Sequence record: OR924452
DNA: 64,000 nt
DNA from: Escherichia phage 241
Strand: one strand, 5' to 3'
Shown here: piece by piece, positions 3,619 through 63,221 of the stretch
How the letters are laid out: each line of letters begins with the position of its first letter
Position numbering within the stretch: the first letter of the stretch is position 1
Notes under the pieces: model-generated
The model's input: the letters and a program-made list of their open reading frames with translations, nothing else
The model's database searches: none
What the model was told of the DNA's origin: nothing
Program-made: the position numbers and the translations under genes

Positions 3619-5901
3619 ATGATTAACATCATAAAGCGGGACGGATCTTCTGTCCCCTTTGACATTGAAAAACTCCACACTGTTCTTGAACGTGCCTGTG
3701 AAGGATTAGAAGGAGTTTCGGTGTCTGAGGTGGAAGCAGCATCGAAGATTCAGTTCACAGACAATATGAAAACCGAACGCATTCAGGATATTATCATCCA
3801 AGCGGCGGCTACATTGATTTCTGTAGAAAAACCCAACTACCAATATGTTGCTGCCCGCCTGAAATCGTATGACCTGCGCAAAGTCGTCTATGGGCGATAC
3901 AAGCCACCTCACTTGCTTGATATATTCGCTAAAAACATCAAGCAGGGCGTTTATGATCGTGAATTCCTCGAACTCTATACGAAAGAAGAATTTGAAGAAC
4001 TGAACACGGTCATCAATCACAAACGCGACAAGAATTTTACTTGGGCGGCTATGGGCCAGCTCACGCAAAAATATCTTTTGCGCGATCGCTCAGCAGACAG
4101 CAAAGTATATTACGAAACGCCTCAAGTCATGTATATGGCGATCGCGATGGCTCTGTTCTCTGCATGGGGCAAAGAAACTCGCCTGACGATGGTGAAGAAA
4201 TTTTATGAATACGCCAGCACAGGTAAATTCAGTCTTCCAACGCCCATCATGTCCGGCGTTCGTACCCCAACCCGCCAATTCAGTTCTTGTGTTCTTATCA
4301 AAACTGGTGACACTTTGGACTCAATCAATGCTACAGCCAAAAGTATTGTTGATTATGTATCCAAACGCGCTGGGATCGGATTTGATGTCGGAGCAATTCG
4401 CGGCATCGGTAGCCCTATCCGAAAAGGCGAAATGGTGCACACAGGCCTGGTTCCTTTCATCAAATATCTGACTGGGGCATTAAAGTCTTGCTCTCAAGGC
4501 GGTATTCGTGGCGGATCAGCAACTTGCTATATCCCTATCTGGCATTATCAATTTGATGATGTTGTGGTCCTGAAGAATAACCGTGGTCTTGAAGAGAACC
4601 GTGAACGCCGTATCGACTACGGTATTCAGATCAACCGTGTCATGTTCGAACGTCTGGTGAACAAACAACCCCTGTATTTGTTCGATCCGAAAGACAACCG
4701 CGATATGTACGAAGCGTTTTTCGCAGATGTCGATAAGTTCCGTACCCTGTACGACAACATGGTCAAAGCTGCTGATGCTGGTTTGGTTCGTGCCAAGAAG
4801 ATGAATGCGGAAGAAGTATTCCAGATGTTGTTGGATCAGCGTTCAGATACAGGCCGCATCTACATCGCGTTTGTCGACCACATGAACCAGTACAGCCCAT
4901 TCAATCTAGACACAATCTATAGTTCTAATCTGTGTCTGGAGATTGCGCTTCCTACTCGTGAATTCCAACAGTACGACGATGAAGAAGGTCGGATCGCTCT
5001 GTGTACTTTGGCCTCTTTTAACCTGACGGCGTTTGAAGACCCGACAGAAATGGAAGACGTTGCATATGTCTTGGTTTCGGCTTTGGATATGCTGCTGGAA
5101 TACCAAGATTATCCAGCACGTCAAGCCCGTCTGGCTGTGGAAGAATATCGTCCTCTGGGTATCGGTGTCGTCAACGTTGCACATTTCTTCGCCAAGAACT
5201 TCACGGGGTATGGATCTCCTGTTGGGTTAGAACTCCTGGACAAGTGGATGGCGCACCTGCATTTCTATCTGGTAAAGGCTTCGAATCGTCTGGCCATGAA
5301 GTTTGGGGCATGTAAGAAGGAAACCATTCATCGTTCTGGTAAGATAACAGCCGACCTTCAACCGTTGCCGCTGGATATCCTCCCCAATGGTAAAAAGCCG
5401 GAAGGTATGGCATACGGCCTTGACTGGGACGGTTTGAAAGACTCTCTGCGTTACCATGGTATCCGCAATGCTACTCTCTTGGCGATAGCACCAACTGAAA
5501 GCTCCTCTCAGGTGCTGAACGCCACGAATGGTATAGAGCCACCCAAAGGCCTCATCAGTATCAAAGGCAGCAAGGATGGCGTTTACAAGCAGATCGTTCC
5601 GGACGTTGAAACCCTTGGTCCTCTATATGACCTGAAATGGAATCTGTCTTGTATCGACTATTTGAAAACAGCGGCGGTCGCCCAGCGTTGGGTAGACCAA
5701 TCCATCAGCGTTAATACACATTATGATCCAGAGAAATTCCCAGACGGGAAGATCCCGCGCTCTCTCATGATGCAGGATATTCTGTCTTTCTACATGTGGG
5801 GTGGTAAAACTCTGTATTACAACACCAACAAAGACTCTAAGGAAGATGAAGAGTTGAAACAAATTGAAGATCCGAATCACTGTGACACCTGTGTTGTCTG
5901 A
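3619..5901 (+). CDS. nrdA: ribonucleoside-diphosphate reductase large subunit (class Ia, N-terminal ATP-cone)
   Basis: 760 aa; N-terminal INIIKRDGSSVPFDIEKL ATP-cone; global resemblance to T4/E. coli NrdA including the YQYVAAR region. Confidence 0.9.
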   Translation: MINIIKRDGSSVPFDIEKLHTVLERACEGLEGVSVSEVEAASKIQFTDNMKTERIQDIIIQAAATLISVEKPNYQYVAARLKSYDLRKVVYGRYKPPHLLDIFAKNIKQGVYDREFLELYTKEEFEELNTVINHKRDKNFTWAAMGQLTQKYLLRDRSADSKVYYETPQVMYMAIAMALFSAWGKETRLTMVKKFYEYASTGKFSLPTPIMSGVRTPTRQFSSCVLIKTGDTLDSINATAKSIVDYVSKRAGIGFDVGAIRGIGSPIRKGEMVHTGLVPFIKYLTGALKSCSQGGIRGGSATCYIPIWHYQFDDVVVLKNNRGLEENRERRIDYGIQINRVMFERLVNKQPLYLFDPKDNRDMYEAFFADVDKFRTLYDNMVKAADAGLVRAKKMNAEEVFQMLLDQRSDTGRIYIAFVDHMNQYSPFNLDTIYSSNLCLEIALPTREFQQYDDEEGRIALCTLASFNLTAFEDPTEMEDVAYVLVSALDMLLEYQDYPARQARLAVEEYRPLGIGVVNVAHFFAKNFTGYGSPVGLELLDKWMAHLHFYLVKASNRLAMKFGACKKETIHRSGKITADLQPLPLDILPNGKKPEGMAYGLDWDGLKDSLRYHGIRNATLLAIAPTESSSQVLNATNGIEPPKGLISIKGSKDGVYKQIVPDVETLGPLYDLKWNLSCIDYLKTAAVAQRWVDQSISVNTHYDPEKFPDGKIPRSLMMQDILSFYMWGGKTLYYNTNKDSKEDEELKQIEDPNHCDTCVV

Positions 5902-38973: not shown

Positions 38974-39381
38974 TTAATCCACCAGGCGTTCGTAAATTTT
39001 TTGACGGAACTCATTCCCTTTTGCACAACCTGTGGCCAGCAAACGAGTACCGCCTGTCCCGATGACACTGATCGTTGAAAATCTTAAAATACGGCCTGTG
39101 ATGGACTGATCCACTTTGATGGTCTCAACTTTACCCAGGCGAAGTTCATCAGCATCACGGTGGATAAACCCTCGTTTTACGATAACCCGTTTGTTGGTGA
39201 CTGCGAATTCTGTGGTCATCACATTCAAGATAGTTGGGATCAGGAATAACAAACTGAAACCAAATGTTGGAATAATCGTTAAAGCGACGAGAACATAAAT
39301 CCAGAATCCACTCCACCAAGTCGGACGAGTGAATGCAACCACATATTCATTTTCGCTCAGCATACGGTCGACGTAACGCAT
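38974..39381 (-). CDS. membrane protein with bacterial PH-like (YdbS/YdbT-type) domain
   Basis: Two N-terminal TM helices then a segment resembling the bPH_2 family. Confidence 0.35.
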   Translation of the reverse strand: MRYVDRMLSENEYVVAFTRPTWWSGFWIYVLVALTIIPTFGFSLLFLIPTILNVMTTEFAVTNKRVIVKRGFIHRDADELRLGKVETIKVDQSITGRILRFSTISVIGTGGTRLLATGCAKGNEFRQKIYERLVD

Positions 39382-59521: not shown

Positions 59522-59609
59522 CCCAGAGGCGTCCTTTGTGAGACATATCTTCAGCCATCGCGGACAAGGCGAGGGTTGCTACAGCTGCAGCAGATAATGG
59601 TTTAGACAT
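59403..59609 (-). CDS. small secreted/lipoprotein-like basic protein (68 aa)
   Basis: AAGGAG RBS 7 nt before ATG; N-terminal signal-like MSKPLSAAAVATLALSAMA; Lys/Arg-rich C-terminus. Confidence 0.4.
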   Translation of the reverse strand: MSKPLSAAAVATLALSAMAEDMSHKGRLWDDQRYAQGCTPGEPGHARPSVSRPKKAKTHGKNKKKRRK

Positions 59610-60048
59610 CTGTTTCTCCTTTTGCTGCATATGCCAGTGCTTTTACGATCATCACGGCCAGTCCGATTGGATCGTACATGTTATCGAATTCTTGTTCTAC
59701 AATCTGACGTATTTCATCAGAAGATTGTACTTCGGAGCAGTTCTTGCTCTGTCTACGTTGTTCTTGCTCAACGAGGTCTTTGAACAGAAGGTCTTTGAAA
59801 GAATACTCATCGAAGTTTTCCAGATACTGCTGGATACTTGGTTGTTTCGCATCCATCGTTCTACGCAGATTGCTGATAGTTGAACTCGCCTGTTCGCGGT
59901 GTTTGTTCATAACGGAAAAGTTCACGGGTTGTCCCCAAGCGTTCGTCACTGTGTTGGAACACACTTGTCCGAAGAGATCTTGGAAGGCGTCATCCAGATG
60001 AATCAGCGCGGCGGCCAGTTCATCATAAGTTGGTTTTTGAGCAGTCAT
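59602..60048 (-). CDS. hypothetical protein (148 aa)
   Basis: ORF. Confidence 0.45.
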   Translation of the reverse strand: MTAQKPTYDELAAALIHLDDAFQDLFGQVCSNTVTNAWGQPVNFSVMNKHREQASSTISNLRRTMDAKQPSIQQYLENFDEYSFKDLLFKDLVEQEQRRQSKNCSEVQSSDEIRQIVEQEFDNMYDPIGLAVMIVKALAYAAKGETDV

Positions 60049-60428
60049 TTTCGTTTATTCCTATTTTTAGATTTCTTGGCTTGACGTTTATGCTGGGCGG
60101 CTCCATACAAGCGCGGAGGCTTTTGATAACGCTGTGAGGCAATTATATCCCTGTAGTCGGCTTCGGCTTCACAGCAAGAAACATCCGTTCTTCGTAATTG
60201 TGCGACCGCTTGTGACACCAGCATTTTACGTTCGCTTTCTACCAGGTCATCACAAATTATCATGCGCTCGCCTGGTTCACAACGACGTTTGGGAATGTCG
60301 TCAACACTGATGCATTCCACCTCAACGCCTTTCAATTTTTCTTGAAGGATGATGGCCATAGTACGAGCGCCCACCCCTCCTCCAATAATTGCAATCTTTC
60401 TTGGCTTGTCAGACATAATACATTCCAT
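60045..60428 (-). CDS. hypothetical protein with Gly-rich dinucleotide-binding-like N-terminus
   Basis: KIAIIGGGVGA motif; basic C-terminal tail. Confidence 0.45.
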   Translation of the reverse strand: MECIMSDKPRKIAIIGGGVGARTMAIILQEKLKGVEVECISVDDIPKRRCEPGERMIICDDLVESERKMLVSQAVAQLRRTDVSCCEAEADYRDIIASQRYQKPPRLYGAAQHKRQAKKSKNRNKRK

Positions 60429-60434
60429 AAAAAA

Positions 60435-60468
60435 GAGGATAGAGCAATAATACCCTATCCCCCTTTAT
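60435..60468 (-). terminator. terminator hairpin with AATAAT loop; one of two near-identical intergenic elements
   Basis: GAGGATAG-agcaataatacc-CTATCC with flanking T-tract on the minus strand; followed by the shared TTTATTGAAGAACG. Confidence 0.5.
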
Positions 60469-60478
60469 TGAAGAACGA

Positions 60479-60904
60479 TTAGTCTTTGGATTCTACTTTA
60501 TCACCGCGCAGATCCTGGACGGGTTTGCCATCCGGCGACATGATGTATATGGTGTTAATTGTCTCAAACCAAGACAATTCATCAACTCCTTCAGTGTATG
60601 GAGTTACCGGAACTGAAGTTTTGATATGATCACCATCGTTATTTGGGGCACCATCAGACTTCAGCACTGGCTCCAGGAAGGCGAAACGGCCATTTGGATA
60701 AATCACCCCGCCTTTGAACATGCGAATCTTCTTACGAGGATTATTCGCCTCGCCAAGGCACACCACCAGATGATGGATCATCTCAGGACGGGTAAGCAAC
60801 GTGTCGTCACGGATGATCCCCTGTTTGATAGCAGAGATCACCACTTCATCCAACAAAGCCTGTTGCTGTTCCAGAGTCAAAGATTCAGTAAGTTTCACGC
60901 TCAT
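60479..60904 (-). CDS. hypothetical protein (141 aa)
   Basis: ORF. Confidence 0.45.
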   Translation of the reverse strand: MSVKLTESLTLEQQQALLDEVVISAIKQGIIRDDTLLTRPEMIHHLVVCLGEANNPRKKIRMFKGGVIYPNGRFAFLEPVLKSDGAPNNDGDHIKTSVPVTPYTEGVDELSWFETINTIYIMSPDGKPVQDLRGDKVESKD

Positions 60905-60907
60905 GGT

Positions 60908-61477
60908 CTAACCTTTGAAATTAATTGGGTTCTGAACCCCAGAGTCAAACGCGGCCTGGGTACGGGTATCGCTCACCACCTGACAGGTCTTGTCAAGATC
61001 GATGCGAGGGTATCCAAAGATGCCAGCAATGACAGATCCAGGGAACTGGCCGAGTTTGGTTTCATAGATAGCACACGCGTCCAATTTCTTTGTCTGGCTG
61101 ATACGGAATTCATCACGTCCTGAACTGATGACCACCTGAATTTCTTTGTACAGGCTTGAATCAAACTGGATGTTCTGTTCCTGGATCCATTGCATAACCG
61201 CCTTTGAACCATCAGCACCATAACGACCCTGGAAAGTATCTTTGATCACTTCTTTCAGACCGTCTTTGTACAGGCCAGGTATCTGAGCCGTCTCTTGTAC
61301 TTTGTTTGTATAGTTGCTCAGATGGTTTTCAGAATCTTTATTGAACTTTTTGACTTGCTGTTCAATACGATTGAAATCATTGAAATAACTGACGAAACTA
61401 CCAACACCGATTACAACAAAAGCCAGAATCGCCAAACCGATGATCCAACCAATTGAAATACCTTTACGCTGCGACAT
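60908..61477 (-). CDS. lemA: LemA-family membrane protein
   Basis: N-terminal TM helix followed by a region resembling LemA; C-terminal FPGSVIAGIFGYP motif. Confidence 0.5.
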   Translation of the reverse strand: MSQRKGISIGWIIGLAILAFVVIGVGSFVSYFNDFNRIEQQVKKFNKDSENHLSNYTNKVQETAQIPGLYKDGLKEVIKDTFQGRYGADGSKAVMQWIQEQNIQFDSSLYKEIQVVISSGRDEFRISQTKKLDACAIYETKLGQFPGSVIAGIFGYPRIDLDKTCQVVSDTRTQAAFDSGVQNPINFKG

Positions 61478-61492
61478 CTTTACTTCCTCTTG

Positions 61493-62602
61493 TTAAAACA
61501 AACGTTTGTAAGTGCGACCATTGTACTGCATATGGCCTAATATGAAAATTGCGGTAAACGGAACACAACCTAATAAAACGACGATAATCACTTCCCATGT
61601 CTTGAGGTCACGCCATTTCAGATACTCCATTTCCTTCATTTCAACGCGGTTATATCCTTTGCTGATATTGACTGCAACTTCTTGGAATACTGATATCCCC
61701 ATGGGTTTGCCAGTCAATGAAAGACCGTTTCGGGAATGAAGTTCCATGTTATTCATCCCATCAGCAAATGACGTGGATTTACCCCAATTGATTTTCATAT
61801 CCTTCGATATGTCAGTAACCACAATGACATCGTTCTTTTTACCACCAGACCATGCATATAGCAGCCCCTGAAAATATTCCACAGGCTGGCCAGAAGTCAC
61901 TACCCACACGATATTGACCTGACGTGATGCCCCCAATGTTTTCAAAGTGTTGTTCAGATAATCATTCCAATAATCAACGGGAATATCCATCCCTGACATA
62001 TTCAGAACACGAGTCACCCGATAATAATCATACACCCTTGGATATGACGGGATATGGTCTTTGAACTTCTCAGCGAATTGTTGGTCAGATTTGGAGAATA
62101 ATGAATCTCTGTTCCCTAGCACATAGTTCATATATGCATGTTCGCGCGCTGCAGGTTCTCCGATTTTAACTTGTGTCCAACGTGGAGGCTCTGCAGTACC
62201 CTGGCGATTAATACGGTCAATGCTCAGATCACCGACGGTTGTTAATACGTCCCAATCAACGTCATAAGAGTGCTCATAGCACGTGCTGCAATGACGCGTT
62301 TGTGTACAAGATCGGTTATTTCCTGAACCAGAGCAAGAAGTTGTGTAATAGCACATACATTCATAAGAATGACTACAGCTTACCTTGTTTCGTTGCTTGT
62401 CAGTAACGTATCCATTCAAAATTTCAACATCTCCCGAACTACCCAGGGAAAATGCAGCGTATGCTCCCGCCTGGATAAGACAGGATAATACAACCACTAT
62501 CGCAGTAGCAATTAGCGTTTCTTTTGGTTCATGGGTTTTGCGATGGTAAACCACGAACAATATGGCTAAAATAATAGGGACCACAAACAGAAGGTAAATC
62601 AT
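61493..62602 (-). CDS. membrane protein with Cys-rich extracytoplasmic region (possible LemA partner)
   Basis: N- and C-terminal TM segments; Cys cluster SCSHSYECMCYYTTSCSGSGNNRSCTQTRHCSTCYEH. Confidence 0.45.
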   Translation of the reverse strand: MIYLLFVVPIILAILFVVYHRKTHEPKETLIATAIVVVLSCLIQAGAYAAFSLGSSGDVEILNGYVTDKQRNKVSCSHSYECMCYYTTSCSGSGNNRSCTQTRHCSTCYEHSYDVDWDVLTTVGDLSIDRINRQGTAEPPRWTQVKIGEPAAREHAYMNYVLGNRDSLFSKSDQQFAEKFKDHIPSYPRVYDYYRVTRVLNMSGMDIPVDYWNDYLNNTLKTLGASRQVNIVWVVTSGQPVEYFQGLLYAWSGGKKNDVIVVTDISKDMKINWGKSTSFADGMNNMELHSRNGLSLTGKPMGISVFQEVAVNISKGYNRVEMKEMEYLKWRDLKTWEVIIVVLLGCVPFTAIFILGHMQYNGRTYKRLF

Positions 62603-62985
62603 AACACACCATCCACGAGTTGTTCCTTCGTCATACCAAGAAGTTGATTTTTATGACCTGATTCAGCTCCATTTTTCAACAACAGATCCCAACGTTCTTC
62701 ATGATACCGTGGAGTCATTGCATCGTCAAAAGAAACATGGTGGCGATGCATAATTGTTGCAACGGTATGAAGAACGATTGCTGTCGCTCTTTTTAAAGCA
62801 CGTGTATCAGTGATATGGTCTTCATATTCGATACCCATCAAATCGAGTTCTTTCCGAATATATGCAATAGACAAATCACCTTCAGAATGCAATTTAACAA
62901 TAGTCGCTTTCTTAGGATGTAACACGCCGTCTGTTTCTTTCATGAACAGATCGTACAAATATTGTTTGTATTCGGGGCGCATCAT
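62599..62985 (-). CDS. hypothetical protein (128 aa)
   Basis: ORF with ATGA coupling. Confidence 0.45.
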   Translation of the reverse strand: MMRPEYKQYLYDLFMKETDGVLHPKKATIVKLHSEGDLSIAYIRKELDLMGIEYEDHITDTRALKRATAIVLHTVATIMHRHHVSFDDAMTPRYHEERWDLLLKNGAESGHKNQLLGMTKEQLVDGVL

Positions 62986-63221
62986 CTCGTAATCCCTCCG
63001 GCACAGATAATATTCAGTTCACCGCGACGGAAACCGCCTTGCCCATCGTCCAACTTAGTCAGAAGTGTATGTGCATCTCGAACTTTCTGAGCGAACTCTT
63101 CCGACACCACCAGATGACCCATCAGAGGAGTCTTTTCTTGTTTTGGGGTGGATTCAAAATAGTCACCAAACGTCGCTTCCATATCCAGCACAGACATATC
63201 TTCAATTCGTTGCATTGCCAT
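62982..63221 (-). CDS. hypothetical protein (79 aa)
   Basis: AAGGAAA RBS. Confidence 0.4.
   Translation of the reverse strand: MAMQRIEDMSVLDMEATFGDYFESTPKQEKTPLMGHLVVSEEFAQKVRDAHTLLTKLDDGQGGFRRGELNIICAGGITR

Follow-up and report, generated by a model that had tools for sequence, protein, structure and literature searches.

A probable phage-specific LemA-TPM membrane module in Escherichia phage 241 and other large phages

A 64,000-nucleotide (nt) stretch of DNA from Escherichia phage 241 (sequence record OR924452), called the window here, carries two adjoining genes whose products appear to be a remote homologue of the bacterial protein LemA, 189 amino acids (aa) long, and a 369-aa inner-membrane protein with a TPM-type fold. 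Both are open reading frames (ORFs) on the minus strand, as are all features of the pair given below, and they lie at 61493..62602 (369 aa) and 60908..61477 (189 aa), exactly where the original prediction had placed them. The phage is a Kuttervirus (Ackermannviridae), and over bases 60400-63000 its identity to the Salmonella phages Hercules, SJ2, and Vi01 is 98.8-99.2%. In the original prediction the LemA-like gene was followed by the 369-aa gene in one operon. The ORFs, their coordinates, and their tight packing agree with a single operon, but the order is the reverse, with the 369-aa gene upstream on the coding strand. Its ATG overlaps the stop codon of the preceding 128-aa gene (ATGA), a 15-nt spacer (61478..61492) with the Shine-Dalgarno sequence GAGGA, identified by reading the sequence, separates the two genes, and 3 nt lie between the stop of the 189-aa gene and the start of the next gene (141 aa).

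The two proteins match phrog_2087 (369 aa; E 1e-165) and phrog_1383 (189 aa; E 2e-85), and their counterparts in Vi01 (NC_015296) are Vi01_203 and Vi01_204, which carry the labels "host lysis protein" and "virion structural protein", respectively. Compared with related Ackermannviridae, the ratio of nonsynonymous to synonymous substitution rates (dN/dS) is 0.02-0.07 over both genes (0.03-0.05 for the 369-aa gene and 0.02-0.07 for the 189-aa gene). By this measure and by the PHROG matches, both genes are real and constrained, under strong purifying selection. The SJ2 RefSeq record (NC_023856.1; positions 4093-4964 of our SJ2 locus, L002) has two short ORFs (639 and 123 nt) annotated at the position of the 369-aa gene, where the tblastn match is unbroken over 369 aa at 98.9% identity. 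A further family, phrog_23737, whose 212-position profile matches aa 158-369 of the 369-aa protein, looks as if it was built from such truncated gene calls.

The small protein was searched against Pfam without any match to LemA (PF04011; gathering threshold 26.2 bits) at E<=1, and an NCBIfam scan returned nothing useful. Among 41 homologues aligned as a family (A1), five match PF04011 weakly (best E 1.6e-3), and LemA is nevertheless the commonest Pfam family among these relatives. The profile built from this alignment has a single sequence match in the PDB, the LemA structure 2ETD (E 0.004). A profile-profile comparison by hhalign with an alignment of bona fide LemA proteins (A3) gives 96.6% probability and E 5.7e-10 over 138 columns, and the hidden Markov model (HMM) of the phage family scores true LemA proteins from Neobacillus, Thermotoga, and Thermincola at 41, 40, and 28 bits. 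Since the Pfam match is missing while the profile-profile match is strong, we regard the 189-aa protein as a LemA homologue and not as a Pfam-threshold member; remote homology over the helical C-terminal domain is well supported by these sequence comparisons. The claim that this protein is LemA-like thus stands as a statement about ancestry, though not as a match to the Pfam family.

The architecture is that of LemA, at about 185-200 aa with one N-terminal transmembrane (TM) helix and an all-helical domain. The TM helix (aa 4-35; 61373..61468) is assigned from a hydrophobic segment and the charge of the tail, making this a predicted single-pass protein with its N-terminus inside and its C-terminus outside, and the AlphaFold2 (AF2) model is all-helical with a predicted local distance difference test score (pLDDT) of 74. 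The LemA-aligned region covers aa 24-161 (60995..61408). We compared three LemA motifs, RRxDLIPNLVETVKGYA, ENYPxLKA, and the C-terminal YN..I..FP....GF. Only the last is recognisable in the phage family, as Y..K...FPGSVIAGIFGYP (Y..K...FPG....G(Y/F)P in consensus form), and the first two are replaced in phages by an invariant, phage-specific GRYGxDGSxAxxQWIxExN. A PADLOC match of aa 9-114 to LeoBC, a dynamin-like defence candidate (E 2e-5, 21.9 bits), involves the TM helix and the first helix and was set aside as probably compositional. None of the matches of the two proteins in Pfam, NCBIfam, or PADLOC lies above threshold.

The 369-aa protein had been described as double-anchored, with TM helices at its termini. 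Hydrophobic segments are indeed found at both ends, and there are three of them: an N-terminal hairpin of TM1 (aa 1-23; 62534..62602) and TM2 (aa 27-54; 62441..62524), and a C-terminal anchor, TM3 (aa 333-359; 61526..61606). TM1 was located by Kyte-Doolittle hydropathy and is a helix in the AF2 model, TM2 by hydropathy and AF2, and TM3 by hydropathy; the RKTHEPKE loop before TM2 and the basic tail QYNGRTYKRLF after TM3 are both predicted to be cytoplasmic. The AF2 model (mean pLDDT 87) shows the two N-terminal TM helices, four long β strands (aa 57-75, 79-91, 98-109, and 113-121), an α/β domain, and the C-terminal TM helix. It is well supported that this product is an inner-membrane protein whose extracytoplasmic part of about 280 residues consists of a Cys-rich β-hairpin domain and a TPM-fold domain.

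The Cys-rich domain spans aa 57-158 (62129..62434), as delimited by the AF2 strands and covariation. The exposed Cys-rich region noted in the original prediction is real: seven cysteines fall within aa 76-108 (C76, C82, C84, C90, C99, C105, and C108), and most are nearly invariant in the family. Across the family, C84 and C105 are lost as a pair, as are C90 and C99, and H78, C108, H111, and D114 change jointly. This covariation suggests disulfides C84-C105 and C90-C99, probably also C76-C82, and a possible metal site formed by H78, C108, H111, and D114. The β domain has no PDB match by sequence or fold; in the Foldseek search of the PDB its long hairpins resemble FliF collars and toxin pores at a probability of 0.1-0.3 only, which we treat as a lead.

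The TPM-fold α/β domain extends over approximately aa 190-318 (61649..62035) and carries a conserved W-x-GGKKND-V motif. A Pfam scan of the 369-aa protein gives no match to TPM (PF04536; gathering threshold 22.1 bits), and 14 of its 51 relatives match this family weakly (best E 1.8e-4). The α/β fold is that of TPM domains, and Foldseek agrees. In sequence, the Thermotoga TPM protein linked to LemA can be aligned through its core with the motif QVNIV.V....EYF..L...W.GGKKNDV.VV; the phage domain is so diverged that this core strand-helix motif is all that aligns with bacterial TPM. Of the two partner families proposed for a profile check, then, TPM is borne out by weak matches and by fold, and DUF2207 is not, being absent from the matches of the 369-aa protein and from the 25 commonest families among the 51 relatives (E<=10). 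The identification of the partner as a TPM-domain protein with a novel Cys-rich domain sharpens the original interpretation.

A TPM fold in the large protein invites the idea of a periplasmic enzyme, in which the TPM domain would be a phosphatase or nucleotidase scavenging phosphate for the replication of a large genome and the LemA-like protein would serve as its anchor or regulator. Phosphatase or nucleotidase activity has been reported for the TPM proteins TLP18.3 and BA41 (cited in PMC11237479), and the possible Cys-His2-Asp metal site deduced from covariation could be read in the same way. This site lies in the β domain, however, outside the TPM domain, and the alignment with bacterial TPM is confined to the core motif. 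A catalytic role for TPM domains is also disputed, and they have come to be seen as chaperone-like assembly helpers for membrane-linked complexes rather than as phosphatases (PMC11237479; bioRxiv 10.1101/2025.01.14.632903). We consider an enzymatic function quite unlikely.

The topology of both proteins can be predicted from family-wide features. The N-terminal tail of the 189-aa family is net positive in 37 of the 41 sequences, and the C-terminal tail of the large-protein family is basic, with a mean of 3.2 K+R against 1.6 D+E. In the small protein, C135 and C165 are both present in 27 sequences and both absent in 14, and neither ever occurs alone. All named hosts of phages with the pair are Gram-negative, and another group's topology annotation also places both domains outside the membrane. 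Because of the positive-inside bias, the paired loss of cysteines, the Gram-negative hosts, and this independent annotation, both large domains are predicted to be periplasmic and disulfide-stabilised. As in other TPM proteins, the TPM domain would be extracytoplasmic with a membrane anchor after it, a placement to which TM3 with its basic tail, the charge bias, and the paired cysteines all point.

The surroundings of the pair bear on the two functions that databases currently assign to it. The leftward gene block that holds the pair also contains rIIA, topoisomerase II, DexA, and dCMP deaminase, and the virion modules lie elsewhere. A structural role for the LemA-like protein, as RefSeq and PHROGs have it, is backed by the "virion structural protein" label on phrog_1383 and many RefSeq records, by "putative structural protein" in some Erwinia jumbo-phage records, and by "major capsid protein" in two records. 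The virion proteome of LIMEstone1, comprising 39 proteins, includes neither ORF194 nor ORF195 (PMC3296691, Table 2), and the Sajous1 virion table contains no LemA-named entry and no numbers near the rII genes, although its gp numbers are not mapped to the pair (PMC10892097). These two virion lists leave the "virion structural" and "major capsid" labels unsupported, with database annotation as their only source. The N-terminal TM anchor and LemA homology of the small protein, its position among early/middle-type genes, and the occurrence of the pair in both myoviruses and siphoviruses likewise speak against a virion component. We view such a role as exceedingly unlikely, and the "major capsid protein" label is clearly a mis-annotation.

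The label in NC_015296 would instead make the 369-aa protein a holin, an antiholin, or a lysis-timing factor, which accords with its three TM segments, with the location of rIIA about 2.1 kb downstream of the pair, and with stray holin Pfam matches (E 0.007 and 0.07, each in one of the 51 relatives). These holin matches are isolated, however, and cover TM segments only. Holins and antiholins are small TM proteins encoded beside endolysin or spanin genes and matching holin families, a description that does not fit this protein: its 369 residues, with a folded, TPM-containing periplasmic region of 280 aa, set it apart from typical holins, its gene is about 50 kb from that of the endolysin, and in other phages the pair is not consistently near lysis genes. 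The conservation pattern of the pair is also unlike that of holins. The "host lysis protein" label is without support, and a part in lysis control is very unlikely.

We then considered the distribution of the pair. By tblastn, the small protein was found in 501 phage records and the large protein in 486, and the LemA-like family amounts to 1,412 representative clusters at 50% identity. The carriers of the pair, about 500 sequenced phages, belong to many unrelated lineages of large phages, roughly 100-550 kb, and include Ackermannviridae, the Vibrio cholerae phage ICP1, T5-like siphoviruses, several jumbo- and mega-phage lineages, and Straboviridae. The large gene comes first, with the small gene adjoining, in Vi01, SJ2, LIMEstone1, ICP1, the T5-like DU_PP_V, and the jumbo phages Simmy50, fEgEco12, Lu11, and Ah1, and the two genes are same-strand neighbours in 9/9 GenBank phage loci inspected from unrelated phage groups. 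In IMG/VR, a search through the small gene gave 62 loci, and in every one the large gene directly precedes it on the same strand. Searching from the large gene, with one genome per species, yielded 27 loci, mostly metagenome bins, two of which end at a contig edge; the small gene adjoins the large gene in 21 of the 25 informative loci. The synteny comparison proposed in the original prediction therefore came out in favour of linkage in both directions. The bacterial order, with the LemA-like gene preceding the TPM-like gene, occurs in a single locus, one of the 21 (L085, 341..1992).

From one pair of sequences to the next, divergence in one protein correlates with that in the other (r 0.67; Mantel 0/2000), and in a metagenomic contig (L016, 1012..2673; JGI metagenome 3300014198) the TPM-like and LemA-like proteins are fused in frame in a single 553-aa ORF. 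This fusion protein (P0219) scores 15.8 bits against PF04011, and its topology stays coherent because the linker falls on the cytoplasmic side. Joint inheritance and joint evolution of the two genes are well supported by these comparisons. A search for a third conserved gene was unsuccessful, as the neighbours in ICP1, Simmy50, fEgEco12, Ah1, and DU_PP_V are unrelated (exoribonuclease-like, TelA, resolvase, or no match); the four genes flanking the pair in phage 241 are found in Ackermannviridae only, and outside this family just the pair is conserved. Two of the loci have surroundings worth recording. In Escherichia phage fEgEco12 (L007, 987..2129), a TelA homologue (toxic anion resistance; Pfam E 1.4e-37) is encoded two genes upstream of the pair. 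In the 487-kb contig L082 from Achromobacter anxifer LMG 26857, the pair adjoins genes for RecA and an MscS-like channel among ORFs without a Pfam match; the isolate assembly may here include a jumbo phage or some other large mobile element.

This distribution also bears on superinfection exclusion, one of the functions raised in the original prediction, in which a periplasm-facing complex would block genome entry or the tail lysozyme of secondary phages in the manner of T4 Imm and Sp. Those two proteins are the precedent for superinfection exclusion by membrane proteins, and both members of our pair are predicted inner-membrane proteins with periplasmic domains, encoded in a nonstructural gene block near rIIA. 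Like Imm/Sp and the T4 RI/T system, the pair is phage-encoded, anchored in the inner membrane, periplasm-facing, and located outside the virion gene clusters. The pair shows no detected relationship to these T4 proteins in sequence or fold, and PHROG and PADLOC give no match to exclusion proteins. Exclusion genes are generally small, lineage-specific, and fast-evolving, and Imm/Sp and RI/T are small and lineage-restricted, whereas the phage pair is large, ancient, and spread over many phage groups. It is kept at 30-45% identity with invariant motifs across phages that have very different entry machines, it is under strong purifying selection, and it derives from a bacterial housekeeping-type module. 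For these last three reasons we rank exclusion, which we judge unlikely, below a role in membrane maintenance.

The bacterial relatives provide the closest parallel. LemA genes in bacteria had been said to sit beside a membrane-protein partner, and a TPM-type gene directly follows lemA in each of the three genera checked, Thermotoga, Neobacillus, and Thermincola. This gene encodes 238-263 aa and, in the first two, overlaps lemA and has a Pfam TPM_phosphatase match; the Thermincola gene has no Pfam match on record, and the TPM core motif is present in its sequence. In Thermincola (L013/L014, 4001..7812), genes for NfeD and the flotillin-like FloA come directly after the lemA and TPM-like genes, a neighbourhood that would link the LemA-TPM module to membrane-microdomain and scaffold proteins.

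The phage pair resembles these bacterial LemA-TPM modules (PF04011 with PF04536; for example, Thermotoga TM0961/2ETD) in having two adjacent, co-oriented, often overlapping genes. One product, of about 190 aa, combines a TM helix at its N-terminus with a helical LemA-type domain, and the other is membrane-anchored, with an extracytoplasmic TPM fold followed by a TM helix at its C-terminus. Both phage proteins have detectable homology to their bacterial counterparts. There are also differences. Bacteria have LemA followed by TPM, and phages, L085 excepted, have TPM followed by LemA. In place of a signal peptide, the phage TPM protein begins with an uncleaved TM hairpin; it adds a Cys-rich β domain of 100 aa and lacks the Gly-rich C-terminal tail. 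The phage LemA protein has GRYGxDGSxAxxQWIxExN where bacterial LemA has its central motifs. In solved structures, TPM proteins are found at photosystem II and at a respiratory supercomplex, in each case on the extracytoplasmic side. The TPM assembly and repair factors, which comprise TLP18.3/Psb32, LMTP1, the DUF5130 subunit of mycobacterial CIII2CIV2, and B. subtilis YdjH, serve known complexes; none is reported with a LemA partner, and none has the extra β domain of the phage protein. Our literature search turned up nothing published on a phage LemA or TPM pair, and "LemA" there mostly returned author names or the unrelated GacS/LemA kinase.

Overall, we think it probable that the two genes are a strongly diverged form, peculiar to phages, of the widespread bacterial membrane module made up of a LemA and a TPM gene, and that their products form a periplasm-facing complex that maintains or assembles inner-membrane complexes during infection. 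The identity and architecture of the pair are the firmer part of this proposal, and we hold them with high confidence; the maintenance or chaperone function, which is drawn from analogy, is tentative. The proteins would be made with the early/middle gene block for DNA metabolism and rII functions, not with the virion genes, and would join in a complex at the periplasmic side of the host inner membrane. By analogy with TLP18.3/Psb32 at photosystem II, the TPM-like subunit of the mycobacterial supercomplex, and YdjH in PspA operons, this complex could act as a chaperone or scaffold by which membrane-embedded complexes, and with them an energised inner membrane, would stay functional throughout a large phage's long infection cycle. 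Alternatively, it might assemble a phage-specific membrane complex.

Several points weigh against this proposal. Neither protein reaches its Pfam gathering score, the mechanism depends on analogy with TPM proteins from elsewhere, and the fusion is known from one metagenomic contig, where a sequencing error is possible. The timing of expression is taken from the gene neighbourhood only, and a promoter and terminator scan gave counts no higher than shuffled background. In addition, four homologues of the large protein (L092, L100, L103, and L104) stand alone, with no LemA-like neighbour, while keeping the Cys motif and GGKKND. The large protein can therefore apparently work without the LemA-like protein. 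The surroundings of these solo genes look bacterial (a TrmB-type methyltransferase, a racemase, and a TetR regulator), and the phage gene may have its cellular relatives, or its origin, among such genes. We looked for an alternative partner at these loci, where the upstream ORFs proved mutually non-homologous and, at the high-GC loci, appear to be spurious calls.

A more specific version of the maintenance proposal is that the module binds inner-membrane complexes of the host, respiratory or otherwise energy-transducing, and keeps them active while infection proceeds, with the long Cys-stabilised β-hairpins of the large protein perhaps arranged in what might be an oligomeric ring. We regard this version as doubtful, a long shot; if true, the module would be a heterotroph counterpart of cyanophage psbA. 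More broadly, a module that sustains the host inner membrane would represent a general infection strategy of large phages.

Databases label the pair "hypothetical", "virion structural", or "host lysis", and its identification as a diverged LemA-TPM module corrects this annotation while giving a clear predicted topology and testable partners. The pair is also genetically tractable: phage deletions and plasmid expression offer a way to learn what LemA-TPM modules do in general, bacterial ones included. Its carriers include Ackermannviridae used in biocontrol as well as ICP1. On present evidence the pair is widespread, strongly conserved, mis-annotated, and easily testable, though not conceptually startling.

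Finally, some neighbouring and more distant genes deserve mention. Downstream of the pair, two minus-strand genes have Pfam matches to families restricted to phages: DUF7231 at 60045..60428 (E 1.6e-73) and DUF7181 at 59602..60048 (E 3.6e-81). The DUF7231 protein starts with a Rossmann-like IAIIGGGVGA and has weak matches to pyridine-nucleotide oxidoreductases (E 0.0035). Elsewhere in the window, a minus-strand gene at 38974..39381 encodes a protein of 135 aa that has two hydrophobic segments near its N-terminus and a bacterial PH domain (Pfam bPH_2, E 1.7e-12, above threshold), another bacterial membrane-associated domain in a phage copy. An SPFH/band-7 lipoprotein is among the proteins listed for Vi01-like phage genomes (PMC10892097). 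Together, the bPH_2 protein and this lipoprotein hint at a wider envelope toolkit in Vi01-like phages.

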